Shown piece by piece: positions 5,068 to 49,846 of a DNA stretch of 64,000 nt. The stretch covers positions 16,721 to 80,720 of the forward strand of contig JAPDJP010000015.1 of assembly GCA_029259055.1 (NCBI GenBank), written 5' to 3'. Positions within the stretch are counted from its first letter, which is position 1. The number at the start of each line of letters is the position of its first letter. The notes beneath the pieces were generated by a model that had not been told where the DNA came from, made no database searches, and saw nothing but the letters and a program-made list of their open reading frames with translations. The DNA is from Thermoplasmatota archaeon (GTDB lineage: Archaea; Thermoplasmatota; E2; UBA202; JdFR-43). The position numbers were made by a program, and so were the translations under genes.

Positions 5068-5099
5068 TTTTTACCTTTTTACCTTTTTACCTTTTTACC
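5068..5099. repeat. Four perfect tandem copies of an 8-mer (TTTTTACC; GGTAAAAA on coding strand)
   Basis: Directly visible; fills the smc-scpA intergenic space. Confidence 0.9.
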
Positions 5100-5103
5100 T
5101 CTT

Positions 5104-8628: not shown

Positions 8629-8685
8629 CCCATCCCTTAAATTTAATGATGTTTAGTATATAAGATTAATGATTTTATTTTTGAT

Positions 8686-10263: not shown

Positions 10264-10356
10264 TACCCTTATTAAAAAAGGTGTATAAAAAGATTGGTGA
10301 GGAATATAAAGTAAAGATAAAAAGATAAATATTTTATATGCTCATAAATTAAAGAT

Positions 10357-11148: not shown

Positions 11149-11184
11149 CAATGTTTTTATACTATGCTCATTGTTATAACGAAA

Positions 11185-13102: not shown

Positions 13103-14284
13103 TTAGGTAACAACCCATCCAGGCCCAACCTGGGCGTATATTCTTGCAATATTTATTCTAACTATAATATTTTGCAAATTGAGCAAAACAAAATTTTCTC
13201 CTTCCGTTACTCTTCCATTGAGCTCTTCTTTAAGGAAATCCTTCCAAGCAGAAGGATAGAGAGTAGTAATATTTATTGTTACATTTGTTGCATAATAAAT
13301 ATAGCTGGTCCAGCTTGAAAAATTCGTTCTTATAGAAAATGTTCCATAACCTGCTGCTCCTGTTTTGCCAGCAACACCAACTATATTAATTAAAGTAAGA
13401 TTAAAAGTTTGATTATTAGCTATTAGCATGGGAGGGAATAACATTGTATTTCCTCCCGCCTGACTTAAAATAACAGCTCCTCCCTCATAGATATAATCTT
13501 GGTCAACAAAATAGGCATTTTGAGAGGAATATTTTATTGTACCCAACTTGTTTGTTTGGCTAATTTGTACATTTTGAAATCTAAGACAATTTATTATAAA
13601 AGTGCCATTTGATGAGCCATTTATTGAAATATTATATGGGGTAGGAAAGTTTTGTAATATATCTTTAAATTTATAATCCTCATTCAGTAAATTAATTCTG
13701 TAACTTATTCCATCCTTTAATGCAACAGCTATTGGTTGGCTAAAAATTATTTGAGTATTGTTTATTACAGTAAGATTAATCTGTACAAAATTATTTACAG
13801 TGCCAACCTCTACAGAAATATTTGCACTAAGAACAGATAAATTATAAGTATCTCCCTTTTGCAAATTCTCTATATACAATTCAAGCTCATTTACTTTTAG
13901 TATATTTGTTATTTCCCCTATATTATTTTCAAAGGAATATAATACCGCCTTCATCCCATCGCCATTTATTGATATGCTAAAATTGCTCGAATTGCTTGAT
14001 AGTATTTGCAAAGAACCAAAAGCTCTAGAGGTGACAAAGTAAGGCAATTCTTTACTACCTAAAGTAATAGAATTTATCAAGGGCGACTCACTCCTTTCTA
14101 TCGCCTGTAAATCGACGGAATATTTTAAGCTAGCAAATTGATTTGCAACCAAATCCATGTGTTCCGCTTCCCTTTCCTTCATCCATCTCGGAATATAATA
14201 TGTTTGAATAGTTATTAGCATGATGGCAAATAAAGTGACAATGAGAATTGCGACGATGACGCCAACCTGCCCCTTCCTATTCAT
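13103..14284 (-). CDS. Possible separately translated archaeal pilin-like protein (class III signal peptide) nested in frame in gene D
   Basis: Internal ATG 14284 with upstream GAGGGG SD-like site; RKG|Q + hydrophobic helix + QTYYIPRW..EREAEHM pattern seen in euryarchaeal pilin-cluster proteins. Confidence 0.55.
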   Translation of the reverse strand: MNRKGQVGVIVAILIVTLFAIMLITIQTYYIPRWMKEREAEHMDLVANQFASLKYSVDLQAIERSESPLINSITLGSKELPYFVTSRAFGSLQILSSNSSNFSISINGDGMKAVLYSFENNIGEITNILKVNELELYIENLQKGDTYNLSVLSANISVEVGTVNNFVQINLTVINNTQIIFSQPIAVALKDGISYRINLLNEDYKFKDILQNFPTPYNISINGSSNGTFIINCLRFQNVQISQTNKLGTIKYSSQNAYFVDQDYIYEGGAVILSQAGGNTMLFPPMLIANNQTFNLTLINIVGVAGKTGAAGYGTFSIRTNFSSWTSYIYYATNVTINITTLYPSAWKDFLKEELNGRVTEGENFVLLNLQNIIVRINIARIYAQVGPGWVVT

Positions 14285-16978
14285 GCTATTAAATCCCCTC
14301 TTTTTAAATAACTTTACGATATTTGCAAAAATAATGGCTACTAAGGCAATTATTATTATAATTAAAATTGTGTTATCTTTGCTACTTTTAATTTCAAATT
14401 TTGCTATATTAGAAAATTCTTTTCCATCATATGCTCTTGCCTCCACAATATGCTTACCCTTTAATTTGATTTCATAACTCCAATTTCCTTGCTCCCATTC
14501 CCCTATATCGATCCAGCTACCATTATCTATCCTTATTTCAATTTTTAAAACATCTCCATCTTCATCCTTTACTATTCCTCTTATAACACCATTTTTACAT
14601 TCATATATGGAAATATACGGTTTATGATTATTATTTACATAAATACATATTGAATCAGTTGCATAATCTTTACCATCATATGCCCTCGCCTCTATAATAT
14701 GCATTCCATTTTTTAATTCTGTTGTATCTATTTCATAATACCAGCTCAAATTTTCTACCAAAATCCAGCTACCATTATCTATCCTTATTTCAATTTTTAA
14801 AACGTCTCCATCCTCATCGTTGGCAATACCTCTAATCATAATAGAATTATTAACGTAACTTCCATTTTCTGGATATAAAATATGAATTTCAGGAGGAGTA
14901 TTTTGAACCACAGAACTTGTTACAAAATTTGCAATAATTGTCTTATTCTCATTCATTACAACTTGTATAACATTTTCATAACCCACAGCATCCCCGCCCC
15001 ATCCAGCAAATCTATAATTTGAATATGCATATGCTATCAATGTTACTTTCGTCCCATATTCATAATTTTTTTTCAATGGATTAATATGGACATATCCAGA
15101 ATTTGGAGGATTTATTATAACAGATAGCTCGTATTTTTTATATTTCAATATAACAATTTTGCTTATGTTGCCAATGCATCCATCATCATCTGTTATAGTA
15201 AGAGTAACATTGTATATTCCATCATCAGAATAGGAATGAGTGACAACGCTTCCATATGCAACATATCCATCTCCAAAGTCCCATGTATAGTTTACAATGT
15301 AGCCATCTAAATCATAACTTGAAGAAGCATTGAATATAACGGTATTGTTCACAATTTCATATGAGAAATTAGCAAAAGGTTTTCTATTCATTACAACAAT
15401 TTTTTTTGTTATGTTGCCAATCAATCCATCATTATCAACAACTCTCAAAGTAACATTGTATATACCATCATCATTCCATGAATGCTCAACTACATCACCA
15501 CTTTCATCAAATATACCATCACCATTCCAATCCCATTCATATGATACAATAGAGCCATCTAAATCATAACTTAATGAGCCATTGAAAATAACGGACTCAA
15601 AAGTATATGGATTTAAAGGCATAAAGGAAAAATTGGCAATAGGAGGAGATAATATAAGAGCGTATGTTGTATCTACAGCAATGCCTCCATAATTATCAAC
15701 AACTGTAAGAACAACAGTATAATTTCCTGGACTGCTATAGGAGTGAGTAACAACTTTTCCATATCCAACGCTTCCATCCCCAAAATTCCATGTATAATTT
15801 ACAATGTAGCCATCTAAATCATAACTTGAAGAAGCATTGAATAAAATGCTTTGATTTACAATTGCATAGTAAGCTCCTCCTGCATTTGCAAAAGGTATGG
15901 AATTTCTAACATCAATTTTTTTGCTTATGTTACCAACGCATCCATCATTATCAACAACTGTTAGAATAACAGTATAATTTCCTGGGTTATTATAGGAATG
16001 GGTGACAACTCCTCCATGTCCAACATACCCATCCCCAAAATCCCATGTATAATTTACAATGTAGCCATCTAAATCATAACTTGATGAAGCATTGAATAAA
16101 ATACTTTGATTAATATACGGGTTTAAAGGCACAAAAGAAAAATTTGCAATAGGGGGAATTAATTCCATTATTGTTATACTCTTGTTTTCTACATATGCAT
16201 ATATAATGTTGTTATACCAGTCACTTATGGTAACATTGGATAAACAAATTTCCGTTTTTCCATATGATAATGGTTTAAAATTGATTCTTGCAACATATCC
16301 GCTCCCATTTGTAACATTTGAGATTGCAACGATTCTTACTCCATTAGAAATATTATTCCAATATACATTTACAGATTCATTCCCTATCTCTCCATTTTCA
16401 ATTTCTTCTATGCATAAATAGCTCTTGTTATATAATAAATCAAAGTTCATGCTACTAAAATTGCTAACATTGTATATCATTATGTCAGCATAAAAATTCT
16501 TTTTAACAACATCCGGGGAAGAAACTTTTAAAAGCGTTGGTGTTAAAATAACGCTTTTATTAAGCCAGCTTACATTTATTTTATTTCCATGCACATCACT
16601 TAAATTTCCATATATTTTAAAATCAGCGACTCCTTTTCCAATACTCTTAAATTTAACTATAGAAAGATATCCATCGCCACTAATTCCAGTAAGACCGGCA
16701 TCTTGAACTATTTTGCAGATTCCATCATATGAATTATAGTTAACTCCTATACTATAATTTTCTATGCTTCCATTATATACTCCTATCAATTGCAAAATAG
16801 ATGAATTATAAACAATAATATAATCTGCGGCAGAAAAATTACTTAGGTTATAAGCCATAATATATAAATTGATTTCATTTCCAGTTAGTACTATAGATGG
16901 ACAGGAAAGCTGTATAGTTGCAGCTATTGAAGTTACTGCAAATGCATTAAGTGCCAATATTACTACTAATAATTTCAT
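13103..16978 (-). CDS. Gene D: scaffoldin-like surface protein (signal peptide, 2 cohesin-like, 4 PKD, InlB-B-like repeat, 2 Ig-like, TM) fused in frame to a prepilin-like protein
   Basis: Two ~120-aa repeats with cohesin pattern (N..N..A.D..I.YN..IL....V..G....G.G.L..V.F); WDFGDG PKD motifs; TM TILIIIIIALVAIIFANIV-KLFKKR; then MNRKG|QVGVIVAILIV. Confidence 0.78.
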   Translation of the reverse strand: MKLLVVILALNAFAVTSIAATIQLSCPSIVLTGNEINLYIMAYNLSNFSAADYIIVYNSSILQLIGVYNGSIENYSIGVNYNSYDGICKIVQDAGLTGISGDGYLSIVKFKSIGKGVADFKIYGNLSDVHGNKINVSWLNKSVILTPTLLKVSSPDVVKKNFYADIMIYNVSNFSSMNFDLLYNKSYLCIEEIENGEIGNESVNVYWNNISNGVRIVAISNVTNGSGYVARINFKPLSYGKTEICLSNVTISDWYNNIIYAYVENKSITIMELIPPIANFSFVPLNPYINQSILFNASSSYDLDGYIVNYTWDFGDGYVGHGGVVTHSYNNPGNYTVILTVVDNDGCVGNISKKIDVRNSIPFANAGGAYYAIVNQSILFNASSSYDLDGYIVNYTWNFGDGSVGYGKVVTHSYSSPGNYTVVLTVVDNYGGIAVDTTYALILSPPIANFSFMPLNPYTFESVIFNGSLSYDLDGSIVSYEWDWNGDGIFDESGDVVEHSWNDDGIYNVTLRVVDNDGLIGNITKKIVVMNRKPFANFSYEIVNNTVIFNASSSYDLDGYIVNYTWDFGDGYVAYGSVVTHSYSDDGIYNVTLTITDDDGCIGNISKIVILKYKKYELSVIINPPNSGYVHINPLKKNYEYGTKVTLIAYAYSNYRFAGWGGDAVGYENVIQVVMNENKTIIANFVTSSVVQNTPPEIHILYPENGSYVNNSIMIRGIANDEDGDVLKIEIRIDNGSWILVENLSWYYEIDTTELKNGMHIIEARAYDGKDYATDSICIYVNNNHKPYISIYECKNGVIRGIVKDEDGDVLKIEIRIDNGSWIDIGEWEQGNWSYEIKLKGKHIVEARAYDGKEFSNIAKFEIKSSKDNTILIIIIIALVAIIFANIVKLFKKRGFNSMNRKGQVGVIVAILIVTLFAIMLITIQTYYIPRWMKEREAEHMDLVANQFASLKYSVDLQAIERSESPLINSITLGSKELPYFVTSRAFGSLQILSSNSSNFSISINGDGMKAVLYSFENNIGEITNILKVNELELYIENLQKGDTYNLSVLSANISVEVGTVNNFVQINLTVINNTQIIFSQPIAVALKDGISYRINLLNEDYKFKDILQNFPTPYNISINGSSNGTFIINCLRFQNVQISQTNKLGTIKYSSQNAYFVDQDYIYEGGAVILSQAGGNTMLFPPMLIANNQTFNLTLINIVGVAGKTGAAGYGTFSIRTNFSSWTSYIYYATNVTINITTLYPSAWKDFLKEELNGRVTEGENFVLLNLQNIIVRINIARIYAQVGPGWVVT
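15157..15646. repeat. ~490-bp near-identical repeat encoding two PKD domains, copy 1 (gene D)
   Basis: Matches 20006-20495 at offset 4849; antisense ORFs 15330-15569 and 20179-20418 translate identically. Confidence 0.93.
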
Positions 16979-19485
16979 GCTTTCCCTAATATTTTATTTA
17001 TAAGCATTTCCATATCTTCCTGATTAACATTCCCATTTTTATCTACATCTGCTGGTGGGGTGGGGGTATCGATTCCCGCCAAAATTCTCTCCATTTTAGT
17101 AATGTCCATTGCATTTAGCTTTCCATCTAAATTGGCATCCCCTCTTTTATATACAGTTACTTCTATTTCTTTTGAATAAACTCCTCCATATTCATCTGTT
17201 GCTAACAAAATAACGGTATATTTACCAGCTCTTCTATAAACGTGCGTAACATTCTTCCCATATGCAATGCTCCCGTCCCCAAAATCCCATTTCCATGAAA
17301 TAATGTTTCCGCTCGAATTGTCATAGAAATAGCCTGTTTCATTTTCAAATAAGAAAGAATATGAAAAGTTTATTGATACATTTTGTATTGTATGGAAAAC
17401 AAAAATACCTGTTGTAGAGATATTTTTACCATCATTTACAACAACATACCATCTATATGTTTTTCCATGTTTTAAATTCAAAGCTACACATGCATATCCA
17501 TTGTATGTTTCAATAGAAGAAATTTTACTTCCATTATGCCAATAGAATGTAACATTTAATATATCGTAATCCTCATCATACACATAAATTTGGAGAGAAA
17601 TATTTATTCCCACTACAGTGTCATTTTCTGGATATAAAATTGTTATATTTGGAGGATGATTTTCTTTTAACAATGTAGAAAAGTTCTTTACTTCTCCATA
17701 TGCTATTCTACCATTTGAACCAACAGCAACAGCTCTATAACTATAGCATTTTCCATCTTTCAATCCAGTAATATTGACATTGAATAAACCCGTAGTATTT
17801 ACTGTTTTGACAGATGTTGTTTTCTTGCTTTTACCATCCCAGTATTCAAACCAAATGTAACAAAAATCACTCCCTCCCAATGAAGTTAAGTTTGCGTATA
17901 AAGTAGCATTATGATATGATGCCATTGCATCCCAAGTAGCAATGGAGGGAGGAGCAGGAAGCGCCAAAGTTTTAAAAGTAAGATTTACTCCATAAGATAT
18001 CCCCTTACTATTTTCAACAACAGCCCTATAGTAATACAAAGTATTTTCCTTTAAATTGGTTAATACTTCGTAAAATTCTCCAGTTGAATCCATTATCTTT
18101 TTTTGTGTTTGATTTTTTTCTCCTCCCTCCTCCCAATATTCAAACCATACCTTACAGCTGTCATCACCTCCCATATCTGTTAAATTTCCCTTTAGAATAA
18201 TGGCATATTCTATTGCCCTCGTTTCCACGCTTGCTTTTATTGGTTGAGTATAGAATGTATGGTCATTTCCATAGGTTATACCTTTATAATTTTTGGCAAT
18301 TGCCCTAAAATGATAAACTTTTCCTGGCTCCAAATTATCGATTTCTATTGAAAATTCACCAACAGAATAAATATTTAGTTTTTGTGTTGTATAACCATAA
18401 GATGTTGTCTCTCCATACTCAAACCATGCTTCACAGCCATCATCCCCTCCCAAATCAGTTAGCTCTCCCCTTAATACAGCTGAATAACTTGTAACATTTT
18501 CAGCATCTAATGTTATAACAGATGGATAAATAATATGGGTTGTAAATGTTAAATCCTCTCCCACAGATGTTCCAGCAATATTACTTGCAATAGCCCTAAA
18601 ATGATATGTTGTATTAACTGTTAACCCAGATATAGTGTAATAGAACTGGGATGGCGAAGTTTTTTGGATAACCGGGGTAGAATATGCATAATCCTGCCAG
18701 TTTTCATGAAATGTTGTATCATAAACAAACCAGACTTGGCAATTCTGAGCTCCTACCCTATTTAAATACCCATTTAATGTTGCTTCATTATATCCAATAT
18801 TTGTTGCCTGCTGTGTAATAACTTCTGGAATTTCTGCTGGAGTATGAAAAGTTAAATCATTTCCATAACTTGTTTTTTTGCTATTCCTAGCAACAGCTTT
18901 AAAATGGTATGTTGTATCTGGTTTTAAATTAGTAATAGCAATACTAAAGATTCCTTCTTCATATAGTGTTAATTTTTGTGTTGTATAACCATAAGATGCT
19001 GTTTCCCCATATTTAAACCATACCTTACAGCTGTCATCCCCTCCCAAATCAGTTAGCTCTCCCCTTAATACAGCTGAATAACTTGTAACATTTTCAGCAT
19101 CTAATGTTATAATGCTTGGACTCCCAATCAATGAAAAACTTATATTTTTTGAAGGTTGACTAACATCTAAAATAAAAGATTTGCTATTTTCTTCCCCATT
19201 ATAACTACAATATACCGTGATTGTGTCCCCATCTTCACAATTTGGCAGATTATATAAATTGGCTTGATAATAACCATTTTGTTGAGTTGAAACCGAAATT
19301 TGCGTTGATTTATCAACATCTTTTATTATAACAGATACGCCAGCTGGCAAAGGCTCCCCATCGCTATTTTTTATGTATCCATATACTGGAAATGGCTGGT
19401 CCAGCGCTTTTCCTCTATCAATTACTTCTATGGTTGTAAAGAGTATTAACAAACCAACAAACAAACTTTTTATTTTTTTATTCAT
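16975..19485 (-). CDS. Gene C: secreted protein with about 5 FN3-like repeats, Ig-like, PKD and C-terminal dockerin
   Basis: Signal peptide; repeats SA.L.G.L..LGG....VWF.YG...L.P...YHF.A.A.N..G..YG....F.T; C-terminal duplicated Ca-loop GDANLDGKLNAMD...ADVDKNGNVNQED. Confidence 0.82.
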   Translation of the reverse strand: MNKKIKSLFVGLLILFTTIEVIDRGKALDQPFPVYGYIKNSDGEPLPAGVSVIIKDVDKSTQISVSTQQNGYYQANLYNLPNCEDGDTITVYCSYNGEENSKSFILDVSQPSKNISFSLIGSPSIITLDAENVTSYSAVLRGELTDLGGDDSCKVWFKYGETASYGYTTQKLTLYEEGIFSIAITNLKPDTTYHFKAVARNSKKTSYGNDLTFHTPAEIPEVITQQATNIGYNEATLNGYLNRVGAQNCQVWFVYDTTFHENWQDYAYSTPVIQKTSPSQFYYTISGLTVNTTYHFRAIASNIAGTSVGEDLTFTTHIIYPSVITLDAENVTSYSAVLRGELTDLGGDDGCEAWFEYGETTSYGYTTQKLNIYSVGEFSIEIDNLEPGKVYHFRAIAKNYKGITYGNDHTFYTQPIKASVETRAIEYAIILKGNLTDMGGDDSCKVWFEYWEEGGEKNQTQKKIMDSTGEFYEVLTNLKENTLYYYRAVVENSKGISYGVNLTFKTLALPAPPSIATWDAMASYHNATLYANLTSLGGSDFCYIWFEYWDGKSKKTTSVKTVNTTGLFNVNITGLKDGKCYSYRAVAVGSNGRIAYGEVKNFSTLLKENHPPNITILYPENDTVVGINISLQIYVYDEDYDILNVTFYWHNGSKISSIETYNGYACVALNLKHGKTYRWYVVVNDGKNISTTGIFVFHTIQNVSINFSYSFLFENETGYFYDNSSGNIISWKWDFGDGSIAYGKNVTHVYRRAGKYTVILLATDEYGGVYSKEIEVTVYKRGDANLDGKLNAMDITKMERILAGIDTPTPPADVDKNGNVNQEDMEMLINKILGKA
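18379..19112. repeat. Intragenic ~140-bp duplication (18379-18518 and 18973-19112) in FN3-like repeats
   Basis: Near-identical DNA at offset 594 encoding ITLDAENVTSYSAVLRGELTDLGGDD...YGYTTQKL. Confidence 0.88.
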
Positions 19486-22400
19486 CCTATCACCTCCATT
19501 AAAAAGCTACCAGAATTTGCAACCCTCAAAACGACACAATCCCCCGGTTCAATAACAAAATCATAAGAGGAAGGAGAAACACCAACTATATAATCATCAA
19601 ACCCCCCTTTATTAACATTCCATTTACTTATTACACTCCCTTCTGGCATAATATCACTTCCTATTAATTCAGCAAGCTGAGAAGCCTTTATTGATTGGCT
19701 CAGCCATGGAATATAATTGACAACATTTTTTTGATTTTTAACTAAAGAGATTTTAGTATCAACCCTTACAATTTTTGAAATGCTATCGTTATACTCACCA
19801 TTAAAAATCGTAAGAGTAACATTGTAATAATTTCCTAATGGATAAGTATGGCTTGTATTTCTATCCATGCATTTCTTACCATCCCCAAAATCCCAAAGCC
19901 AGGCAGAAGCACCTTTTGATAAATCAATAAAATCTATTTTTTGTTTAGATACCGGATTCTCAGGTATATATGTAAAATTAGCTATTAGGATTATTATTTC
20001 CAAATTTTTGCTTATGTTGCCAATGCATCCATCATCATCTGTTATAGTAAGAGTAACATTGTATATTCCATCATCAGAATAGGAATGGGTAACAACGCTT
20101 CCATATGCAACGCTTCCATCTCCAAAGTTCCATGTATAATTTACAATGTAGCCATCTAAATCATAACTTGAAGAAGCATTGAATATAACGGTATTGTTCA
20201 CAATTTCATATGAGAAATTAGCAAAAGGTTTTCTATTCATTACAACAATTTTTTTTGTTATGTTGCCAATCAATCCATCATTATCAACAACTCTCAAAGT
20301 AACATTGTATATACCATCATCATTCCATGAATGCTCAACTACATCACCACTTTCATCAAATATACCATCACCATTCCAATCCCATTCATATGATACAATA
20401 GAGCCATCTAAATCATAACTTAATGAGCCATTGAAAATAACGGACTCAAAAGTATATGGATTTAAAGGCATAAAGGAAAAATTGGCAATAGGAGGGGAAG
20501 TTAAATTGAAAGAATAGATATTTGATTTAATGCCATTTAATTCATCTTTTGCAAAAATGTAAAATTCATATTTTCCATATTCAAAACTTGAATTGTAATA
20601 ATAAGTATCGTTTAATCCTTTAGTCATTTTTGCAGAAAAATTAGAAAAATTAATCCACACTTCCTTTACTTCAATATTATCTATAACAATGCAGGAAATA
20701 TTTACATATTCATTAATAAGAATGCTCACATTTCTTATTTCAGGTGGGTCATTATCAATTATATTAACAATTTTCTCCCCCGTACTATTCCAATTCCCGA
20801 ATTCATCTTTTGCTACAATCATATAATGCAAAATAGTTTCATTAGCAACAATAATCTCTTTAATCCAATAATCTCCAGATTTTTCCATACTTTCATTATA
20901 ATGGCTTCCATTATACCAGTATTCAACAAATGCTGTTACATTACTTTTATCGCTTATACTTGCATTAAAAATAAAAGAATCACCAGTTGTCGGTATGGAA
21001 GTTAAATCCTTTATTGTTGGCTTTTCAATATCTATGAAATTTGCAACCAAGCTTTTATTTGAATCTAACAAAATTTGAATAGTTTCATTCACACTGCTTA
21101 CATCCCCGCTCCAATAAGCAAATTCATAGCCATCATATGCATATGCAGTTATGGTTATGTAACCATATCCATATAAACCGCTAGATGGAACAGTATATCC
21201 AGCATTTGGAGGAAATATGCTTATATTTAGCTTAAAAGCTTTTGTTTTAAAATGCCATATACAACTCATATTTTCAATTTTGCCATCATTTACAACAACA
21301 TACCAGTAATATGTTTTATTATATTCTAAATTAAGCTGGCATTCAACATTTCCAGAAACATTTTCAAATTCCGCTACCAATTCATCATTCAAATAGAAAT
21401 AAACATGCAATGAATCATTATCCACATCATATATATATGCTATTAAGCTAACATTTTTTGAAACAATGGAATTATTTTCTGGCTCTAATAAATGAATAAT
21501 TGGAGGATGATTATACATAACAATTTTACTTACGTTACCAACGCATCCATCATTATCAACAACTGTAAGAACAACAGTATAATTTCCTGTATTACTATAA
21601 GAATGAGTAACAACTTTTCCATGTCCAACGCTTCCATCTCCAAAATCCCATGTATAATTTACAATGTAGCCATCTAAATCATAACTTGAAGAAGCATTGA
21701 ATATAACAGTATTGTTCACAATTTCATATGAGAAATTAGCAATAGGTTTTTGTAGAACATTTATTGATACAGTATCATATAATTTTGTTCCTAAAATATC
21801 AATTACTGTTAAATTAGCAACAGAAGAAATATTATAAGTACATGTTATGGAAAAATTACCAGATAAATTCCCAACATATTCAGCTATTCCGTCGTTATTT
21901 ATGTCCAGTTTCCATATAGAAATTTCTCCGTCTATATTAATGTAGAATGTAACTGTAAGGGGGGCGCATCCCTGATTTATATTTACAGATAAATTACAGA
22001 AAGGCTCTTTAATTATTTTAAAGGAATATGTAGAAGAAACATTAACATTTCCATTAATGTCAATGGCACATATAAAGAAATAATATGTTCCTACCATGGA
22101 ATATGTTTGGTTTATATAGCGATTAGAGATTTTTTGCATGCTACCGTCTGGATAGGTTATATTAATCCATGTTTCCTTTATACCTGCATTATCTGTAACA
22201 TTGCAGGATATGTTAACGTATTTACCTTTATATTGAATCGATGGATTTATATTAATATCTAAAATTTTTGGTGGCAGATTATCCGATACAGTTTTAAAAT
22301 ACCATATACAACTCATATTTTCAATTTTGCCATCATTTACAACAACATACCAGTAATATGTTTTATTATATTCTAAATAAAGCTGGCATTCAACATTTCC

Positions 22401-25274
22401 AGAAACATTTTCAAATTCCGCTACCAATTCATCATTCAAATAGAAATAAACATGCAATGAATCATTATCCACATCATATATACATGCTATTAAGCTAACA
22501 TTTTTTGAAACAATGGAATTATTTTCTGGCTCTAATAAATGAATAATTGGAGGATGATTATATGAAATATACATAACAATTTTACTTACGTTACCAACGC
22601 ATCCATCATTATCAACAACTGTAAGAACAACAGTATAATTTCCTGTATTACTATAAGAATGAGTAACAACGCTTCCATATGCAACGTTTCCATCTCCAAA
22701 ATTCCATGTATAGTTTACAATGTAGCCATCTAAATCATAACTTGAAGAAGCATTGAATATAACGGTATTGTTCACAATTTCATATGAGAAATTAGCAATA
22801 GGAAAATACGTAACTGTAAAATTATAAATAGGAGAAGAAATGGAATTGTTGCTTAAATCTCTTGCCCATACATAAAAATAATATGTTCCTAGATCATTAC
22901 ATATTATAGATGCAGAGAAGTTATTTCCGTATCCAAACATGCTCACATTTATTTTACCAGTGGGCTTTGTTACATTTAAATACACCTTATCCAGTCCTCT
23001 ATTATCTCTTACCATACAAGATATATTTGTGATGCCAGGCTCTATAAATCTATTATACGATATATTGCTAATAATGGGTGGCAGGCTATCAATAATTTTG
23101 AAGGTATAATTTTTGGTGGCATTTAAATATCCATTTACATCAGTTGCATAAATATAAAATTCATGCAGCCCAATATCAAAAGTTGAATTTATATAGTATA
23201 TGCCATTTCCCTTTTCATCCGCTATTTTGCTCATGCTTATATTTTCATCATCTATTACAATTATAACGCTTTCAACACCCACATTATCATAGACGTAGCA
23301 TGAAATATTAACAGGATATCCATATTGTTGTACATTCTGATAGCTTATATTCTTTATGGAGGGCGGCATCGGCGGAACTATTATGGTAAAGTTCAGTAGA
23401 TTAGTTGTATTCGTGTTCCCGCTTTTATCCTTTGTCCAGATATAGTAATAATATGTTCCTTCCTCATTACCCAAGATTTTATAATAATATAAATTTCCCG
23501 CTTTATTCATACTTATATTTGTAAAGTTGCCAGAAGGCGTTGTAATATTTATTTTAGCAATACTTACTTCAACATTATCTATAATTATGCACGATATATT
23601 GACGTATTCATCGATTTCTTGTGGATTTGGACAGGCGGATAGATTTTTAATTTCTGGAGGAATCAAATCCAAAACAACTATACTCTTTGTTATGCTACTT
23701 GTTGCATAGTCATCATCGGTAACAGTAAGAGTAACATTGTATATTCCATCCCTATAATATGTATGCAATGGATTTTTATAATTACCTTCTAAGATTGTTC
23801 CATCCCCAAAATCCCATCTCCATATGTATATGTCTCCATCAGGGTCTATTGATAAATCCGTAAATAAAACTTCCTCTCCCACCTGAGGATTCTCCGGAAT
23901 AAAATTAAAATCCGCAACTGGTGGAATATTCTCTACAAATATTTCCTTTTCCATAACATCCCAAGCACCATCATTATCATATACAGTTAATCTTACAACA
24001 TATGATGGAGGACTATTCTGTGTATATCTATGGGTAACAACTTTTCCATGTCCAACGCTTCCATCTCCAAAATCCCATGTATAATTTACAATGTAGCCAT
24101 CTAAATCATAACTTGATGAAGCATTGAATACAATATCATCTAAATCTGTTGGATTGGTTGGCATATATGTGAAATTTGCTACCGGCTTGTATGCTATGAC
24201 AAATTTTTGTAGCGAAGATTTTTCAGAATTATTATTTACGTCCATTGCCCAGACATAATAGTAATATATTCCTTTTATGGAATATGTATTGTTGAAGTAA
24301 TATATATCACCAATATTATTCATACTCTCATTTATAAATGTGCCATTAGGAAAGGAAATATTTATATATGCAAATAATACCTCCACATTATCAACTATTT
24401 TACAACTAATATTAACCCATGAATTTGGAATCTGGATTTGAGGATTTGCTTTTAAATCATTAATATCTGGAGGGTATATATCCTCACCAAAATAGATTTC
24501 CATCAGGGGGTAGTAATCAAAATTTCCTTTTTCAAAAGGCTCTATCTGGTAAGGTATATCTCCTACCCCATCTCCGTCATCATCTGTCCCTGTGTACTTA
24601 TCCCAATAATTTCCAACATTTAAATAGAACCATTGATTAAAAGTGCTTTCGTCATATGCATCTATTCCATTATTTATGAAATTATTATAATAAAATATAT
24701 TGTATCTTGTATTTGAACCAAAATCTATACCATAGGCATTTGAAATAAATAAATTTTCTTTAATGGTGGAATTTTGTAGCCCGACCGCAGATATACCATA
24801 TGAATTCATATAAAAAATGTTAGTTGATATTAGATTGTTTATTCCCCCATATGAATATATTCCTCCATAGTTATGAGAAAAATTGCAATTCCTGATTGAG
24901 CAATTTTCAACGTTATCAAGTTTTATACCATAATATCCTTCGCTTGAATTTTTTATGGTAAATCCCTCTATTTCAACATTATTTGCAGTAATTGTTATTC
25001 CATGTTTTCCTTCTCCACATTCAATAATCGCTTTTTTATTTTCTCCTTTTAAAACTAAATTTTTATCAATTACTATATTTTCATGGTAAACACCAGCATA
25101 AACATATATTGTATCTCCAGGTAAAGCAAAATCTATGGCTTCCTGAATGTTATTAAAATCTGCTGTGCCATCATCATCAACATAAATTATTGCTGGCTTT
25201 GCAAATCTTATATTAAATAACGAAATCAATAGAAGAATTGTTATAATCCAAACAACCCTTTTTATAGCCACCAT
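19482..25274 (-). CDS. Gene B: 1930-aa secreted protein, N-terminal NosD/CASH beta-helix, about 7-8 PKD and several Ig-like domains
   Basis: Signal peptide; IYVDDDG.ADF..IQEAID...GDTIYVYAGVYHENI; GNYWD.Y.G.D.DGDGVGDIPY; repeated W[DN]FGDG; no C-terminal TM. Confidence 0.85.
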   Translation of the reverse strand: MVAIKRVVWIITILLLISLFNIRFAKPAIIYVDDDGTADFNNIQEAIDFALPGDTIYVYAGVYHENIVIDKNLVLKGENKKAIIECGEGKHGITITANNVEIEGFTIKNSSEGYYGIKLDNVENCSIRNCNFSHNYGGIYSYGGINNLISTNIFYMNSYGISAVGLQNSTIKENLFISNAYGIDFGSNTRYNIFYYNNFINNGIDAYDESTFNQWFYLNVGNYWDKYTGTDDDGDGVGDIPYQIEPFEKGNFDYYPLMEIYFGEDIYPPDINDLKANPQIQIPNSWVNISCKIVDNVEVLFAYINISFPNGTFINESMNNIGDIYYFNNTYSIKGIYYYYVWAMDVNNNSEKSSLQKFVIAYKPVANFTYMPTNPTDLDDIVFNASSSYDLDGYIVNYTWDFGDGSVGHGKVVTHRYTQNSPPSYVVRLTVYDNDGAWDVMEKEIFVENIPPVADFNFIPENPQVGEEVLFTDLSIDPDGDIYIWRWDFGDGTILEGNYKNPLHTYYRDGIYNVTLTVTDDDYATSSITKSIVVLDLIPPEIKNLSACPNPQEIDEYVNISCIIIDNVEVSIAKINITTPSGNFTNISMNKAGNLYYYKILGNEEGTYYYYIWTKDKSGNTNTTNLLNFTIIVPPMPPSIKNISYQNVQQYGYPVNISCYVYDNVGVESVIIVIDDENISMSKIADEKGNGIYYINSTFDIGLHEFYIYATDVNGYLNATKNYTFKIIDSLPPIISNISYNRFIEPGITNISCMVRDNRGLDKVYLNVTKPTGKINVSMFGYGNNFSASIICNDLGTYYFYVWARDLSNNSISSPIYNFTVTYFPIANFSYEIVNNTVIFNASSSYDLDGYIVNYTWNFGDGNVAYGSVVTHSYSNTGNYTVVLTVVDNDGCVGNVSKIVMYISYNHPPIIHLLEPENNSIVSKNVSLIACIYDVDNDSLHVYFYLNDELVAEFENVSGNVECQLYLEYNKTYYWYVVVNDGKIENMSCIWYFKTVSDNLPPKILDININPSIQYKGKYVNISCNVTDNAGIKETWINITYPDGSMQKISNRYINQTYSMVGTYYFFICAIDINGNVNVSSTYSFKIIKEPFCNLSVNINQGCAPLTVTFYINIDGEISIWKLDINNDGIAEYVGNLSGNFSITCTYNISSVANLTVIDILGTKLYDTVSINVLQKPIANFSYEIVNNTVIFNASSSYDLDGYIVNYTWDFGDGSVGHGKVVTHSYSNTGNYTVVLTVVDNDGCVGNVSKIVMYNHPPIIHLLEPENNSIVSKNVSLIAYIYDVDNDSLHVYFYLNDELVAEFENVSGNVECQLNLEYNKTYYWYVVVNDGKIENMSCIWHFKTKAFKLNISIFPPNAGYTVPSSGLYGYGYITITAYAYDGYEFAYWSGDVSSVNETIQILLDSNKSLVANFIDIEKPTIKDLTSIPTTGDSFIFNASISDKSNVTAFVEYWYNGSHYNESMEKSGDYWIKEIIVANETILHYMIVAKDEFGNWNSTGEKIVNIIDNDPPEIRNVSILINEYVNISCIVIDNIEVKEVWINFSNFSAKMTKGLNDTYYYNSSFEYGKYEFYIFAKDELNGIKSNIYSFNLTSPPIANFSFMPLNPYTFESVIFNGSLSYDLDGSIVSYEWDWNGDGIFDESGDVVEHSWNDDGIYNVTLRVVDNDGLIGNITKKIVVMNRKPFANFSYEIVNNTVIFNASSSYDLDGYIVNYTWNFGDGSVAYGSVVTHSYSDDGIYNVTLTITDDDGCIGNISKNLEIIILIANFTYIPENPVSKQKIDFIDLSKGASAWLWDFGDGKKCMDRNTSHTYPLGNYYNVTLTIFNGEYNDSISKIVRVDTKISLVKNQKNVVNYIPWLSQSIKASQLAELIGSDIMPEGSVISKWNVNKGGFDDYIVGVSPSSYDFVIEPGDCVVLRVANSGSFLMEVIG
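20006..20495. repeat. ~490-bp near-identical repeat, copy 2 (gene B)
   Basis: Matches 15157-15646. Confidence 0.93.
21244..22802. repeat. Intragenic ~500-bp duplication in gene B (21244-21746 and 22291-22802): PKD plus Ig-like module
   Basis: Offset 1047, changing to 1056 across a 9-nt in-frame indel; protein repeats NHPPIIHLLEPENNSIVSKNVSLIA...WYVVVNDGKIENMSCIW. Confidence 0.92.
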
Positions 25275-28200
25275 TTTCTCGGACTTAATAATGGGTACTT
25301 ATCTTGATTAATACCAGGAGGAATTATGTAAGGATCGGTTGAGATATGTTCATTCCAATAATTTCCAGATGTGCTTATATACCATGAATTATTTCCAGCA
25401 TCATATGCTTGGCTATCGTTATGAAGTGTATTGTTTATGAAGTTATTATAATAGAATTTATTTGCAGTACAATCTTGAGAAGCTACATATATTCCATAAT
25501 CATTTGTTGTTATGTTATTTTCATAAACTTCATTGTTAGTTGAGGAAGAAATTACAAAGATTCCATAAGAGTTATTCCATATGATGTTATGCATTATGTA
25601 ATTACTATTTGAAGAATTTATCAGGATACCTGCATTGCTATTATTCCATATAAGATTATCTGTAATTGGTAAAGAATCTCCTTGAGAGGAAAGTAATATA
25701 TAAATTCCATTTAAATTGAAAGATATATTGTTCTTCTGTATATCATTATTGTTTGAAGAATATAAATATAAGCCGTGTAAATTGTTTTCACGAATTTCGT
25801 TCAGTTGTATAGTATTACTATGAGATTTATTTAAAAATATACCATTTCCAGAATTATTATAAATCTGATTATTTTGTATCGAATTAATACTTGAGGAATA
25901 TAGGTATATACCATTTTCCCTGTTTTCATAAATTCTATTTCCTATAATTTCGTTGTTGCCTGCTGTTGCGGACCTTGACCTGTCCAAATAAATTCCATTT
26001 TTATTCCAAAATATTGTATTGTTCAAAATTGTGTTTCCAGAACCACCAGACAGCAATAAGTATATTCCATCATAGCTATTGCTATAAATAGTATTATTCA
26101 TAATATCATTATCATCTGAAGAGGAAATGTAAATGCCATTTTGAGTATTGTTGGATATTGTATTATTCATGATTTTATTGTTGTGACTATCTGATAACCA
26201 AATTCCTTGAAAATTTGATTTAATAGTATTGTTTATTATACTATTTGTACTTGCAGATAAAAATTGCATACCATAACCATTGTTTTCTATAGTATTGTTA
26301 AGTATTGTATTTTCCGAAGAATATGAAGACAAGACAATACCATAATCGTTTTGTGATATGGCGTTTTCTTTAATGATATTGTAATTTCCCTTTTCTATGC
26401 AAACTCCCTTCAAATTATTCCTTATAATGTTTTTTATAATATAGTTATCACTGGAGAGATAAGAAAGTTTTATTCCTTCTTTTGTATTTGACAATATGGT
26501 ATTGTTTTTGATATAATTTCCAACAGAGCGGTATAAACAGATGGCGGTACCATTATTAAATGATATATTGTTATTTGCAATGATATTTTCCCCATTTGTA
26601 GTCAGCATAGAAAATGCAAGATAGATTCCATTCCCATTATACAGAATTTCATTTGATGATATATTATTTTTATTACCCTGATAGATATAAATAGCTTGCA
26701 AGTTACCACTTATTACATTTGAAACTATTGTATTATTATTTGATGATGTAGAGAGATTAATGGCATAGGTGTTATTCATTATTGTATTTGATACGATAAT
26801 ATTGGAAGCAGAATAATAAGCACTTATTCCTTTGCTATTCAGATATATGTCATTTAAAATTAGGTCATTGTTACTAGAATTTTGGAGAGATATTGCAATG
26901 CTGTTATTATAGATTTTATTCTCTCTTAGTGTATTTGTATGGGAGAATTTTTCTATAAGTATCGCTTCCAAATCATTTTTTGCTATTGTGTTATTTATTA
27001 AAGAATTTGTATTTGATATTTCAAGCCTTATACCTCTATCATTATTAATGATTTTATTGTTTATAATTTCATTTCTATTTGTTGAAGACATCAAATAAAT
27101 TCCCTCTTGAGCATTACCGATGAAAGCATTGTTTGATATTATATTGCTTTCAGCTGAGTCAATAAATAAACCAATTCCATTTTGAGATATATTATTTTTA
27201 TCTATTGTGTTTAAGCTTGCTCTATATAAATAAAGTCCATATCCATTATTTTTAATATCATTATTTAGGATTTTGTTACCTAAGCTGTTGCTACCAAAAA
27301 TGCCATTTGTACAATTTTTTATTATGTTTCCTTGTATTGTATTATTATGGGAGCTCAACAAGTATATTCCATTATTTGCTCCGCTGATTGTACAATTAAT
27401 AATCTTTACCCTTGCTGAATTACTAACAAGAATTCCTGTTTGTAAATCTCCCTTAATAACAAAACCTTCTATTTTAGCCCAATCAATTGTTACTTCGATT
27501 CCTGTTTGTGAAGCAAAAATTGTTGGATTATCTATGCCAATTAGGTCTATTGATTTATTCAGAACGACGTCTTCATAATATATCTGCCCACTGCTTCCAA
27601 TTACATAAACTTTCCCTCCTGGCGTAACAGCATTTATTCCTTCTTGGATAGTAGCAAAATGATTTGGTTGATTTAGCCATTCTTCCGTTGCATCATTATT
27701 CACCCATACTTCTGTTGCATATCCTGCGCCCTCTGCTAGCCAAGCCAAAACATTTCTAAGATAATTCTCTCTGCTTTCCTGTGTTATTTCGTCAGCGTTT
27801 AAATCGAAGCCCAATATTATGCTTCTATTTCTCCCTCTCTCGGCATCTATCGCATAGTATCCAACTGGAATTGAAGATTTACTACCCTTTACCACGACAT
27901 CATCCAAATAATATCCATAGGAGCGCCAGCGCCAATCGCTGACCAAGCGCCACCTTATCTGAATAACTTTTCCAGCAAAAGCTGATATATCTATAGTGTG
28001 ATGTGTCCAGCTTCTTTGGTCACCATAAAATACAGCTATCGTTTGCCAAGTGCTTCCTCCGTCATCAGATATTTCCAGATATACATAGTCGTAGGTGTTA
28101 TGGTAGCCATATACTATATAATACCAATCATAAAATTCCAGTACAGCTGTTGTAAAATTGCTCAAATCTATACTACCTGTTTTTAACCAGCAATTTGCAT

Positions 28201-30415
28201 TGTTTTGATACCAGCTGTCCAAATCAGTACCATATACCTTGCTCCCACTATGTGCTCCCGGAGGCCCAAAAGTAGGAACGCCCCACTCCCACTCATCCTT
28301 TGCTCCTCCATGTGTCCAGCCAGGATTTGTTTCAAAATCCTCATCTAATACAATTGTCCAACTACTCCCATTTGACATTAAGGAATATTTAAATAAATCA
28401 TCTGATTTCTTATGTAAAGCATACAATTTTATTGGAGATTTTATTTCCAAATAAGAAACACCAATTTGTCCTGAAGAAGTATTTTCTATTCCATACAATA
28501 TACCTGCTGCATAATATGGTTTACCTCTAAAGTAAGTATAGCCTAATCTTCCTGAAAATGGTTCGTATGCTGGATTGTAATCAATACCTCCAGATGGTTC
28601 TATAAGCCCTAAAACATCACCAAGCCATATCTCACTCGATGTTACGCCATTCCCTGGATAATTTTGCAAATCTCTAACAACATATGTTCCACATAACAAC
28701 AATGTTCCTGCTGTTACATTTCCAGTTAGATGCTGAGCTAATTCATATACATGGTTTGCATTGTCATCTCCTCCACTGCTATCATTCCAATATTCTCCTT
28801 CCGTCATTGGCGTACTCCAGTAGTTTGGATGAGATAGCCATGGCTCATAGTTTGCATATCCTCCATCCCCTGGAAAATCACCACAACTCCATATTACTAT
28901 ATCGAATTGATTAATTAAGGCATCATCTATTCTTTGTCCTCTAAGTTCTTCAGAAGTATAGGAGTCATTTGTAAAATACCAGTCATCAATTGCCTTTGCA
29001 TATAAGAATTGGGACTCCGGCATAATATTCTGACACGCTTGAATAATATTATCTATTCCACTTTCCCAACCAATTGGGGTATTATCAACAATTAGGAAGG
29101 TGGGAGGCGAGACAGCGGGCTTTGGATATACTCTAATTATTTTGCTTGTACTATTTTGTCCTCCTTCATTATCGACTACTGTTAAAGTTACTGTATAGTT
29201 GCCTGGCTCCGTAAATTTATGACTTACCGTTGAACCATTTGCAGTAAATCCGTCTCCAAAATCCCAATACCATTCAACAATATATCCATCTTTATCAAAT
29301 GAATATGGTTCTCCTCCATCAAAATTTACGGTAATTACTGTGGTTATATTCCTTGGAGAATAGGAAAAACCGGCGATTGGCAATATGTTTGGAACAACTA
29401 TGGTTTTTTCGAAATATGCCTGCTCCCCATTATCGTCTGTTACAATTAATGTTACAGTATAACTTCCGCTATATTGATAGGTATGGCTTGGATTTGGAAC
29501 AGAAGAGGTACTGCCGTCTCCGAAATTCCAGAAATATGAGACGATTTCACCATCTGGGTCGGTGACATTTGCATAGAAATTAATTGTACCATCTATATTA
29601 GGATCGACATACCATTCAAAATCTCCTACAGGTGGCTTATTATATGTAACATTAACTGGTGGAGGGACATTTACTCCTATTCCTGTTGTTGATGATGCTG
29701 TCTGCCCTTCATCATCAACAACTGTTAAGGTGACATAATATATGCCCGTCGATAAATATCTATGTAGAACATTTACTCCATAGGCATCTGTAATTCCATC
29801 ACTTTCAAAATCCCATTTATATAATACAATTCTCCCTCCGTCAGGATCGTAGCTTGAGGAAGCATCAAATATAATGATTTCTGATTTTCCTGTGCTATTA
29901 ATAAATTTTGGATCAAGAGGTGTATAAGTGAATAATGCCATTGGAGGAGATATTCTGACTAAGCCCTCCTGTAAAATACCAGACATAATAATGGAGTTGC
30001 TGGCTTTGTCAACAACAACGACGCTTATCTGCCAGTTTGTTATATTTCCAAATATTTGGTCTGCATATATTTCAACATACTCTCCTAACTCCCACCTTCC
30101 ATTATCATCTCCACTAAAATGAACGTTATCTTCCTTTGGTATCCCATTTTTATCAAAATTACAGCAAAAACTTTCCATCTCTCCCTTATGAACTATTATT
30201 CTAATTTCAGAAAGCTTTATCGCCTCCCCTCCTTTATGCTGTATAACAATTTTTTCTTCTTCAATATATCCAACCAAATTTAAATCAGGAGAAGATGAAG
30301 GGTTACCAGTTGATAAAACATATATTGCGAAAGCTGAAAAAGCAATTATAGCAATAGCTAACAAAATGACTGTCCCGACTACTTCTGATATTCCTTTATT
30401 TCCTAATCTTAACAT
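25262..30415 (-). CDS. Gene A: giant type IV pilin-like adhesin (archaeal pilin N-domain, 3 PKD, alpha/beta domain with inserted MAM-like jelly roll, long beta-helix)
   Basis: NKG|ISEVVGTVILLAIAII class III signal; QHKGGEAI and WELGE of DUF1628-type pilins; roughly 30 PbH1-type N.I..N.I..N..GI.L repeats; SD AAGGTGA. Confidence 0.83.
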   Translation of the reverse strand: MLRLGNKGISEVVGTVILLAIAIIAFSAFAIYVLSTGNPSSSPDLNLVGYIEEEKIVIQHKGGEAIKLSEIRIIVHKGEMESFCCNFDKNGIPKEDNVHFSGDDNGRWELGEYVEIYADQIFGNITNWQISVVVVDKASNSIIMSGILQEGLVRISPPMALFTYTPLDPKFINSTGKSEIIIFDASSSYDPDGGRIVLYKWDFESDGITDAYGVNVLHRYLSTGIYYVTLTVVDDEGQTASSTTGIGVNVPPPVNVTYNKPPVGDFEWYVDPNIDGTINFYANVTDPDGEIVSYFWNFGDGSTSSVPNPSHTYQYSGSYTVTLIVTDDNGEQAYFEKTIVVPNILPIAGFSYSPRNITTVITVNFDGGEPYSFDKDGYIVEWYWDFGDGFTANGSTVSHKFTEPGNYTVTLTVVDNEGGQNSTSKIIRVYPKPAVSPPTFLIVDNTPIGWESGIDNIIQACQNIMPESQFLYAKAIDDWYFTNDSYTSEELRGQRIDDALINQFDIVIWSCGDFPGDGGYANYEPWLSHPNYWSTPMTEGEYWNDSSGGDDNANHVYELAQHLTGNVTAGTLLLCGTYVVRDLQNYPGNGVTSSEIWLGDVLGLIEPSGGIDYNPAYEPFSGRLGYTYFRGKPYYAAGILYGIENTSSGQIGVSYLEIKSPIKLYALHKKSDDLFKYSLMSNGSSWTIVLDEDFETNPGWTHGGAKDEWEWGVPTFGPPGAHSGSKVYGTDLDSWYQNNANCWLKTGSIDLSNFTTAVLEFYDWYYIVYGYHNTYDYVYLEISDDGGSTWQTIAVFYGDQRSWTHHTIDISAFAGKVIQIRWRLVSDWRWRSYGYYLDDVVVKGSKSSIPVGYYAIDAERGRNRSIILGFDLNADEITQESRENYLRNVLAWLAEGAGYATEVWVNNDATEEWLNQPNHFATIQEGINAVTPGGKVYVIGSSGQIYYEDVVLNKSIDLIGIDNPTIFASQTGIEVTIDWAKIEGFVIKGDLQTGILVSNSARVKIINCTISGANNGIYLLSSHNNTIQGNIIKNCTNGIFGSNSLGNKILNNDIKNNGYGLYLYRASLNTIDKNNISQNGIGLFIDSAESNIISNNAFIGNAQEGIYLMSSTNRNEIINNKIINNDRGIRLEISNTNSLINNTIAKNDLEAILIEKFSHTNTLRENKIYNNSIAISLQNSSNNDLILNDIYLNSKGISAYYSASNIIVSNTIMNNTYAINLSTSSNNNTIVSNVISGNLQAIYIYQGNKNNISSNEILYNGNGIYLAFSMLTTNGENIIANNNISFNNGTAICLYRSVGNYIKNNTILSNTKEGIKLSYLSSDNYIIKNIIRNNLKGVCIEKGNYNIIKENAISQNDYGIVLSSYSSENTILNNTIENNGYGMQFLSASTNSIINNTIKSNFQGIWLSDSHNNKIMNNTISNNTQNGIYISSSDDNDIMNNTIYSNSYDGIYLLLSGGSGNTILNNTIFWNKNGIYLDRSRSATAGNNEIIGNRIYENRENGIYLYSSSINSIQNNQIYNNSGNGIFLNKSHSNTIQLNEIRENNLHGLYLYSSNNNDIQKNNISFNLNGIYILLSSQGDSLPITDNLIWNNSNAGILINSSNSNYIMHNIIWNNSYGIFVISSSTNNEVYENNITTNDYGIYVASQDCTANKFYYNNFINNTLHNDSQAYDAGNNSWYISTSGNYWNEHISTDPYIIPPGINQDKYPLLSPRKWWL

Positions 30416-30510
30416 TTTAAATCACCTTGCTAATTTTTTGCTAACAATTTAATAACAATCTGATTATAAAAATTTTTCGAATAATTTTTTAGTTCTGACA
30501 CTATAGCTTT

Positions 30511-49600: not shown

Positions 49601-49846
49601 CACTTGTATATTTTCAGATTCCCAGAACCATATCCCATTTTTATTATTATGAATGTTACAATTTAAGATAGTAATATAATAAGAATAGAATACCGTAATT
49701 CCATTAAATGATGATAAAATGTTACAATCTGAAATTGAGATATTATTTGCTCCGTTTATTTTAATAGATGAATATTGAGGATATGAATTTATTATTTTGA
49801 AATTGGTTATTTTTACATTACTTGTTTCTATGAGGATACCATCTCC

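Follow-up and report, generated by a model that had tools for sequence, protein, structure and literature searches.

Cohesin-dockerin pairs have been described in archaea outside cellulosomes, in Archaeoglobus fulgidus and in anaerobic methanotrophic archaea (ANME), where the two domains occur without cellulose-degrading enzymes and are presumed to serve the assembly of surface proteins. Their function has been an open question since the first sighting in Archaeoglobus. ANME genomes code for many cohesin and dockerin proteins, including scaffoldin-like ones that carry a dockerin plus multiple cohesins. The dockerin cargo is commonly an ABC-transporter substrate-binding protein, and pilins are unmentioned in the part of that study covered here (PMC9012536). 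We have analyzed a stretch of 64,000 nucleotides (the window) from a Thermoplasmatota archaeon (assembly GCA_029259055.1, contig JAPDJP010000015.1, positions 16,721 to 80,720), a member of an uncultured, vent- and sediment-dwelling order of Thermoplasmata. Between positions 13103 and 30415 its minus strand codes for four giant proteins, g1 to g4, the last of which continues in frame into a pilin-like protein that we call P5. Unlike the pairs of A. fulgidus and ANME, this one belongs to a fixed operon kept order-wide, in which the dockerin protein comes just before a two-cohesin scaffold anchored by a transmembrane (TM) helix, a prepilin-fused giant lies ahead, and a pilin-like gene usually follows.

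With the clostridial cellulosome the locus shares a dockerin of duplicated calcium-loop/helix segments that matches solved type I dockerins, and a cell-anchored scaffold with more than one cohesin. It differs in having no detectable glycoside hydrolase or carbohydrate-binding module (CBM) in g1-g4, which sets it apart from cellulosomes, and in its TM-helix anchor (not SLH or sortase), its two cohesins and its archaeal host. The loci of archaeal type IV filaments, in the parts of the reports covered here, include large secreted class III proteins, remote pilin genes, split platform genes and KaiC-family ATPases (PMC4858521, PMC13705601), split platform genes also being described in Cuniculiplasma (PMC12448462). 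In the same way, the class III signal is found here on a large secreted protein, and another locus of this genome (contig C10) has split platform and KaiC-like parts, but the operon itself is without ATPase or platform gene. A loose parallel is offered by the giant "dockerin-type" genes of Omnitrophota, which adjoin loci resembling type II secretion systems and type IV pili (T2SS/T4P), have small class III signal genes nearby and have been proposed to act in predation (bioRxiv 10.1101/2023.11.21.568195). There too, giant dockerin-fold surface proteins are located near secretion or pilus-type genes. However, they are bacterial and, in the part of that preprint covered here, their dockerin-like units are internal repeats and no terminal module is paired with a neighboring cohesin scaffold.

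Non-cellulosomal cohesin-dockerin pairs of archaea and large adhesin-like proteins of type IV filaments are thus both known, and what appears to be new is their combination in one conserved operon. We found no description of an operon combining cohesin/dockerin with pilin/class III genes in the full text of the literature, supplementary files aside; the preliminary description of this DNA, made from the sequence, also knew of no system with these parts. The main text of the 2026 census (PMC13705601), as far as covered here, has 0 occurrences of "cohesin" and 0 of "dockerin". The role of the pair becomes directly testable in this setting, with a conserved operon, a defined membrane anchor and cargo, a distribution over nearly every genome of the order and type IV filament parts adjacent. 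The arrangement suggests a modular route by which archaea may build adhesive cell surfaces.

Organization of the operon

Open reading frame (ORF) calling gave four co-directional, overlapping ORFs on the minus strand, which span 13103-30415; all the features of the operon described below lie on this strand. Base-by-base reading of the junctions showed an overlap of 13 nt between g1 and g2 and of ATGA at both g2/g3 and g3/g4, the very arrangement of giant genes reported in the preliminary description. The four genes are translationally coupled. At a G+C content of 29-37%, ORFs as long as 836-1930 codons cannot be due to chance. A BRE/TATA-like motif (archaeal B recognition element and TATA box) at 30464..30481, recognized by motif match in the sequence, is the putative operon promoter upstream of g1, and between it and the gene there is a Shine-Dalgarno sequence, AGGTGA (about 30422-30427). 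The start of g3 is also preceded by a Shine-Dalgarno sequence, GGAGGTGA.

We have compared the proteins with Pfam, judging the matches against the curated cut-offs, and with NCBIfam. The three kinds of domain on which the preliminary description relied, prepilin start, dockerin and cohesin, all match their family models. g1 (25262..30415, 1717 aa) starts with an archaeal class III prepilin signal and pilin helix. Its Pilin_N domain (PF07790; residues 7-76, 30188..30397) scored 53.3 bits against a cut-off of 25.2 (E 5e-14), and arch_flag_Nterm of NCBIfam 22.5 bits against 20. The cleavage motif is of the K-G|I-S-E-V-V-G-T type, followed by a hydrophobic helix, so that family match, basic residue, G/A at position -1 and helix are all present. 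The sole TM-like segment of the protein is found at residues 16-34, and Pilin_N was detected in 6/6 orthologs with the N-terminus available. After the signal come three PKD domains, an unannotated region (~436-740), a weak MAM-like stretch and a parallel β-helix (~920-1690) of NosD/PbH1 repeats. The NosD/Beta_helix (CASH-type) repeats reach very high scores in g1 and are also present in g2. Residues 436-740 matched no Pfam family, and the region 436-900 had no meaningful solved relative.

g3 (16975..19485, 836 aa) is a secreted protein with a signal peptide, a CarboxypepD_reg-like domain, Fn3-like repeats, PKD and a type I dockerin at the C-terminus. Specifically, Dockerin_1 (PF00404) covers residues 782-833 (16987..17142) with 35.4 bits against a cut-off of 22.9, and with 40.7 bits in the scan of the whole genome. 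Both of its 12-residue calcium-loop segments are intact, with D/N at positions 1, 3, 5, 9 and 12. The orthologs of g3 are 46-58% identical over the full length at 11 loci, Dockerin_1 is found in 11/11 of them, and a profile built from them finds type I dockerins among the solved structures, with 4fl4_A as the best match (E 7.7e-8). With a score above the cut-off and two duplicated calcium-binding loop/helix segments, the C-terminus of g3 is a canonical two-loop dockerin of type I.

Directly downstream, as the preliminary description had also read it, there is the membrane-anchored protein with two cohesins. The full ORF of g4 (13103-16978, 1291 aa) includes the in-frame P5, and g4 proper (14285..16978, 898 aa), delimited by Pfam domains, hydropathy and the end of a paralog on contig C28, is the scaffold. 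It consists of a signal peptide, cohesin 1, cohesin 2, four PKD domains, an InlB-B-like repeat, two Big_7 domains, a TM anchor and a basic tail. Cohesin (PF00963) matched in two stretches with 33.0 bits, above the cut-off of 24.1. In the genome scan, whose coordinates on contig C2 minus 16720 give those of the window, cohesin 1 (16586..16882) reached 27.7 bits, above the cut-off, and cohesin 2 (16172..16498) 31.7 bits. Besides, Cohesin was above the cut-off in 9/10 orthologs, and the ortholog profile matches solved cohesins, the best being 2xdh_A, annotated "COHESIN" (E 2.2e-6). We take 2xdh to be the A. fulgidus cohesin. The TM anchor (residues 870-888, 14315..14371) has a hydropathy of 3.18 over 19 residues and is followed by a short basic cytoplasmic stretch. 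These domain assignments suggest that the products of g3 and g4 probably join via cohesin-dockerin docking.

The C-terminal module of g2

g2 (19482..25274, 1930 aa) is a secreted protein made up of an N-terminal signal or anchor, a NosD-like β-helix, at least seven PKD and Ig-like repeats and a conserved C-terminal module. This module of ~88 aa (19485..19748), delimited by ortholog conservation, is the best-conserved region of the protein, with 56-75% identity among g2 orthologs, and is a candidate attachment or sorting domain. In Pfam nothing matched it beyond a PKD tail, and the best structural match had a Z of only 4.0. Its profile defines 336 representative proteins at E<=0.001, and among the 150 matches listed, 98 end at most 15 aa from the C-terminus of the protein. 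Ten carriers that we scanned contain PKD arrays, FG-GAP, NosD, C13 peptidase, C25-propeptide/MAM, RHS and SBBP domains, and looking up the clusters of these ten returned almost no names. It is a portable C-terminal module without a family name, a widespread and reusable part that caps very different secreted proteins.

Most g2 orthologs have two tandem copies of the module, and some relatives have 21-71 matches to it. In one relative (G029) the locus is without g3 and g4, the module is absent genome-wide, and a TM anchor takes its place at the end of the g2 ortholog. This replacement is consistent with an attachment role for the module. In the genome studied here, a module protein, a dockerin protein and a two-cohesin scaffold occur once each at two loci, which prompted the idea of one g2 module per cohesin; the idea is weakened by the relatives with 21-71 modules and few cohesins.

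The repeats of g2 and g4 appear to have exchanged sequence. A PKD-coding block of ~500 nt is 97-98% identical between g4 (15157-15653) and g2 (20006-20502), and one of 272 nt is 99% identical within g2 (21244-21515 and 22291-22562). Identity this high suggests recent conversion between the repeats, with assembly collapse or duplication as another possibility.

P5, a pilin-like gene fused to g4

The preliminary description had the operon closed by a prepilin-like module at the end of gene 4. The module is present, but its ancestry is separate from that of gene 4. The final 393 codons of g4 represent a conserved gene in its own right, P5 (13103..14284), which is free-standing in the relatives and joined in frame to g4 in the species studied here. 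P5 is convergent with LonB (11164-13095). It starts with a class III-like K-G|Q-V-G-V and a hydrophobic helix, and is a pilin-like protein of the family DUF7289 (PF23960): the g4 tail scored 35.0 bits and P5 alone 37.7 bits against a cut-off of 27, with coverage of profile positions 98-207 of 238. Its database relatives also carry precomputed DUF7289, and in one source bear the name "DUF7289 family protein". Homologs of P5 were found in 37/41 genomes, this one included. All the full-length matches in relatives are located in open frames of 401-509 aa, versus 1296 aa here, and a database search returned 114 relatives of ~290 or 400 aa and two longer forms, one of which is the product of the window itself. 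On contig C28, the paralog of g4 terminates straight after the equivalent TM helix and basic tail.

P5 has a BRE/TATA-like motif of its own (14304..14318), inside the g4 frame, that ends 19 nt ahead of the start codon, with an SD-like GAGGGG in between. In the relatives, TTATTTAA was found upstream of P5 in 16/16 loci with upstream sequence, preceded by CG[TC]AAA in 13/16, and in the loci measured the distance from motif to start is similarly short. The box is kept at the DNA level across two families (L030-L047). At four loci of family f1 (L031, L032, L033 and L040) a TAA within the box is the stop of the cohesin gene, so that promoter-like element and coding end overlap. In the window the reading frame through the box is a different one, so that translation continues into P5.

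Contigs from three DNA runs of three studies and from one RNA library cross the g4-P5 junction without indels, one of the DNA-run contigs representing a strain with 8 SNPs in 2351 nt. The fusion is therefore real in this population. A homopolymer assembly error, suggested by an A5 run with out-of-frame TAA and TAG just upstream, is excluded by the same indel-free contigs. The topology at the junction is a TM helix (out to in), a short basic cytoplasmic loop and the class III helix (in to out). Normal P5 could be restored either by cleavage by the prepilin peptidase or by transcription from the internal promoter-like motif, and a natural in-frame fusion of this kind would show whether the prepilin peptidase is able to cut at a class III signal inside a protein.

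The AlphaFold2 model of P5, built with 16 orthologs (pLDDT 87), has a helix at residues 4-63 and then a β-rich body, that is, the long N-terminal α-helix and globular β domain of the type IV pilin fold. The P5 profile matched 0 solved sequences at E<=1 and 0 NCBIfam families. Residues 112-237 resemble lectin-type β-sandwiches with Z<=7.6, a value within the background range of the search. The layout of a pilin helix with a grafted β-sandwich recalls PilC of Streptococcus sanguinis, a modular minor pilin with a lectin module, against which residues 114-234 gave Z 6.4 with 7oa7_A (rmsd 3.5, 113 aligned) and Z 6.2 with 7oa8_A, again in the background range. Unlike a member of that family, P5 has no sequence similarity to PilC, and galectins and invertase β-sandwiches score equally or better, so we consider it a resemblance and not membership. 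A literature search for "DUF7289" returned no paper, but the supplementary tables of the two type IV filament censuses (2016 and 2026) may already list the family under an arCOG number.

Conservation in the order

The order and domains of g1-g2-g3-g4 are kept across two families of this uncultured order of Thermoplasmata; the preliminary description had made its interpretation depend on such conservation. Dockerin was found in 36/41 genomes, cohesin in 37/41 and the g2 module in 32/41, and the dockerin is located at the end of a frame of 827-873 aa in 26/40 relatives. Of the two genomes from outside the order, neither yielded a cohesin or the g2 module, and only one a dockerin match, which was weak. 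Lengths vary widely among relatives, from 900 to 1861 aa for g1 and from 1224 to 2030 aa for g2.

We have compared the synteny of 17 P5 loci from relatives within the order. LonB is the convergent neighbor at 16 of them. Upstream of P5 we found g3 and g4 at seven loci, a PKD/cohesin gene truncated where the contig stops at five, g1-g2 alone at one (L036), unrelated genes at three and no sequence at one. P5 follows the operon in most lineages and in both main families, with one genus as exception. In the closest relative with a long contig (G001, contig C11, L030), an ORF of 393 aa lies between P5 and LonB (7187-8368), with restriction-modification-like genes next to it.

The genome under study has a second locus of this kind at positions 1-17674 of contig C28 (L012). 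It begins with a protein that has the g2-type module at its end and a small PKD protein anchored by a TM helix. Next comes a protein of 3833 aa whose C-terminus is a dockerin, and then a TM-anchored protein with two cohesins and a further cohesin protein.

Type IV filament genes in the genome and beyond the order

The preliminary description had linked the operon to a type IV pilus, and the genes for such a machine are found elsewhere in the genome. Contig C10 has a PilB3-like ATPase (T2SSE+PilB3_C), two T2SSF genes, a Roadblock protein and two KaiC-like genes. Other contigs contain a second T2SSE ATPase (C1), a prepilin peptidase (Peptidase_A24 and Arc_PepC_II, C14) and two small Pilin_N pilins (C12). 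ATPase, platform, class III peptidase and pilin of a type IV filament system are thus all present, and all outside the operon.

Two minor observations can be added about these loci. At the machine locus on C10 (L014, C10:8000-27000, ~4166-10795), one KaiC-like ATPase is fused to an Arf/Ras-type small GTPase and a Roadblock/LC7 protein lies beside the machine; we presume that this Roadblock and GTPase pair is reminiscent of the MglA/MglB polarity switches. On C14 (L017, C14:12000-28000, 5879-8823), the sole prepilin peptidase gene (214 aa) overlaps by 10 nt the end of an upstream gene for a 769-aa protein with three PKD domains. The peptidase gene is thus also coupled to a surface-protein gene.

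Outside the order, pilin-type giants and DUF7289 genes meet again. In G040, a β-helix/PKD protein, DUF7289, a PilB3-like ATPase and two T2SSF genes are found in a row (L059), and at a second place a P5-like gene comes after one for a Pilin_N-PKD protein. A DUF7289 gene of G039 stands between two Pilin_N giants (1368 and 1331 aa), which precede it, and a 3078-aa protein directly downstream (L046), and elsewhere in that genome a β-helix/PKD protein and a DUF7289 gene lie ahead of two KaiC-like ATPases. The 3078-aa protein of L046 (contig C11, 1-9237) contains a subtilase (Peptidase_S8), three Laminin_G_3 domains, SBBP repeats and DUF2341, a domain tied to PilY-type tip adhesins in the covered part of the 2016 census (PMC4858521). 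The link of the operon to a pilus is genomic and recurrent but indirect, and we regard it as plausible.

Predicted surface location and environmental record

The five proteins contain 2.7-5.1 N-glycosylation sequons per 100 aa, versus 0-0.6 in the cytoplasmic neighbors, and composition predicts 1.2-2.0. Nine public runs contain half or more of the words sampled from 13103-19485, and their labels are hydrothermal-vent or marine-sediment metagenomes. Two of the nine are RNA libraries, with 0.85 and 0.76 of the words; contigs of this kind show presence, not strand, starts or level.

Proposed function and alternative explanations

We lean towards the view that the operon makes a large, N-glycosylated adhesion complex tethered to the membrane. 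g4 would sit in the membrane and hold g3 by calcium-dependent cohesin-dockerin docking, in up to two copies. g1 would be cut by the prepilin peptidase and then either be anchored through its N-terminal helix or become a tip or minor subunit of a type IV filament formed with P5 and the small pilins; P5 would most likely supply the filament or stalk context. g2 would be attached through its C-terminal module. The PKD, Fn3 and β-helix surfaces would in this way be displayed jointly and might bind particles, polymers or other cells. The gene neighborhood suggests that pilus subunits may be physically coupled to the cohesin-dockerin complex.

Several observations weigh against this adhesion complex. 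In this genome the operon shares a contig neither with the pilus machinery nor with the small pilins, and these two are apart as well. The fold of P5 had no match in the PDB at E<=0.001 (Foldseek). Three loci of genus g8 (L034, L041 and L042) keep P5, LonB and the promoter-like motif without g1-g4 nearby. This genus carries the unit elsewhere, as g1-g2-g3-g4 at L054 and as g3-g4 at L053, where unrelated genes follow the relocated pair; g1-g2-g3-g4 is also intact apart from P5 at L056. The arrangement in g8 indicates that P5 is not an obligatory member of the operon. The 17.7 kb of C28, a contig cut at both ends, contain no Pilin_N or DUF7289 gene, and this pilin-free locus implies a cohesin-dockerin core without visible need for a pilin. 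As for the docking of g2, its module far outnumbers the cohesins in some relatives, for example G002 with 36 module and two cohesin matches. The RNA support consists of contigs of RNA libraries, in which DNA carry-over is possible.

The main alternative, possible though on the whole unlikely, is that cohesin and dockerin display surface proteins without any role of a pilus. The class III signal of g1 would then serve only to anchor the protein in the membrane and be cleaved, like those of the non-filament "bindosome" proteins of Sulfolobales, and P5 would be an unrelated housekeeping pilin at a hot spot of surface genes next to LonB. The persistence of the P5-LonB pair with its motif in g8, the occurrence of the g1-g4 unit apart from P5 (L053, L054), the lack of a pilin gene in the available sequence of C28 and the separate promoter-like motif of P5 all fit this explanation, and a subunit of 1717 aa would seem too big for a repeating pilin. 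However, P5 follows the operon in both main families, DUF7289 directly adjoins a PilB3-type machine in L059, and beyond the order two genomes (L046, L058) once more have giant Pilin_N and DUF7289 genes side by side. This recurrent neighborhood makes a mere local hot spot hard to uphold.

The adhesion complex could also take a more demanding form, which we regard as doubtful. The PilB3-type filament machine and the DUF7289 pilin would carry or nucleate an adhesome, in which the 1717-aa prepilin-fused β-helix adhesin, the dockerin-cohesin pair and the g2-type docking module tether giant glycoproteins. As a corollary, the g4-P5 fusion would be matured at its internal class III signal. If true, archaea would have a cohesin-dockerin surface machine coupled to a pilus, and the prepilin peptidase would act on g4-P5 as a polyprotein-processing protease.

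It is very improbable that the four proteins are structural, a glycoprotein coat that replaces or supplements the S-layer and not a dedicated adhesin. The high density of sequons, the very large size and the near-universal presence of the unit in the order would suit an envelope. But the number and content of the repeats vary strongly among relatives, strong conservation is limited to the docking parts, and the near-identical repeats exchanged between g2 and g4 would be typical of adhesins under diversifying pressure and not of lattice proteins. Least credible of all is an enzyme complex similar to a cellulosome, with the right-handed β-helices of g1 and g2 as polysaccharide lyases or hydrolases on the scaffold: known β-helix lyases do have this fold, the NosD/Beta_helix scores are very high and peptidases (C13, C25-propeptide) are among the proteins that carry the g2 module elsewhere, but neither Pfam nor NCBIfam gave any glycoside hydrolase, polysaccharide lyase or CBM family at E<=0.01 for g1-g4, in agreement with the preliminary description, which had recognized no glycoside hydrolase, and the dockerin is on g3, with its Fn3, PKD and Ig-type domains, and not on the β-helix proteins.

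Other features of the window

The flanks of the operon are ordinary archaeal chromosome, with genes for L1/L10, SMC-ScpAB, LonB, RadA, SepF and a PGF-CTERM protein. No tRNA genes were found in a search across the window. Another cluster of surface proteins is located on the minus strand at 46690-51203. It codes for a protein with Big_7 and PGF-CTERM (46690-47571) and for a PKD/β-helix protein of 970 aa (47756-50668). Besides, a β-helix ORF of 249 aa (50454-51203) overlaps the gene of the latter by 215 nt in another frame, and may be its frameshifted N-terminal part.

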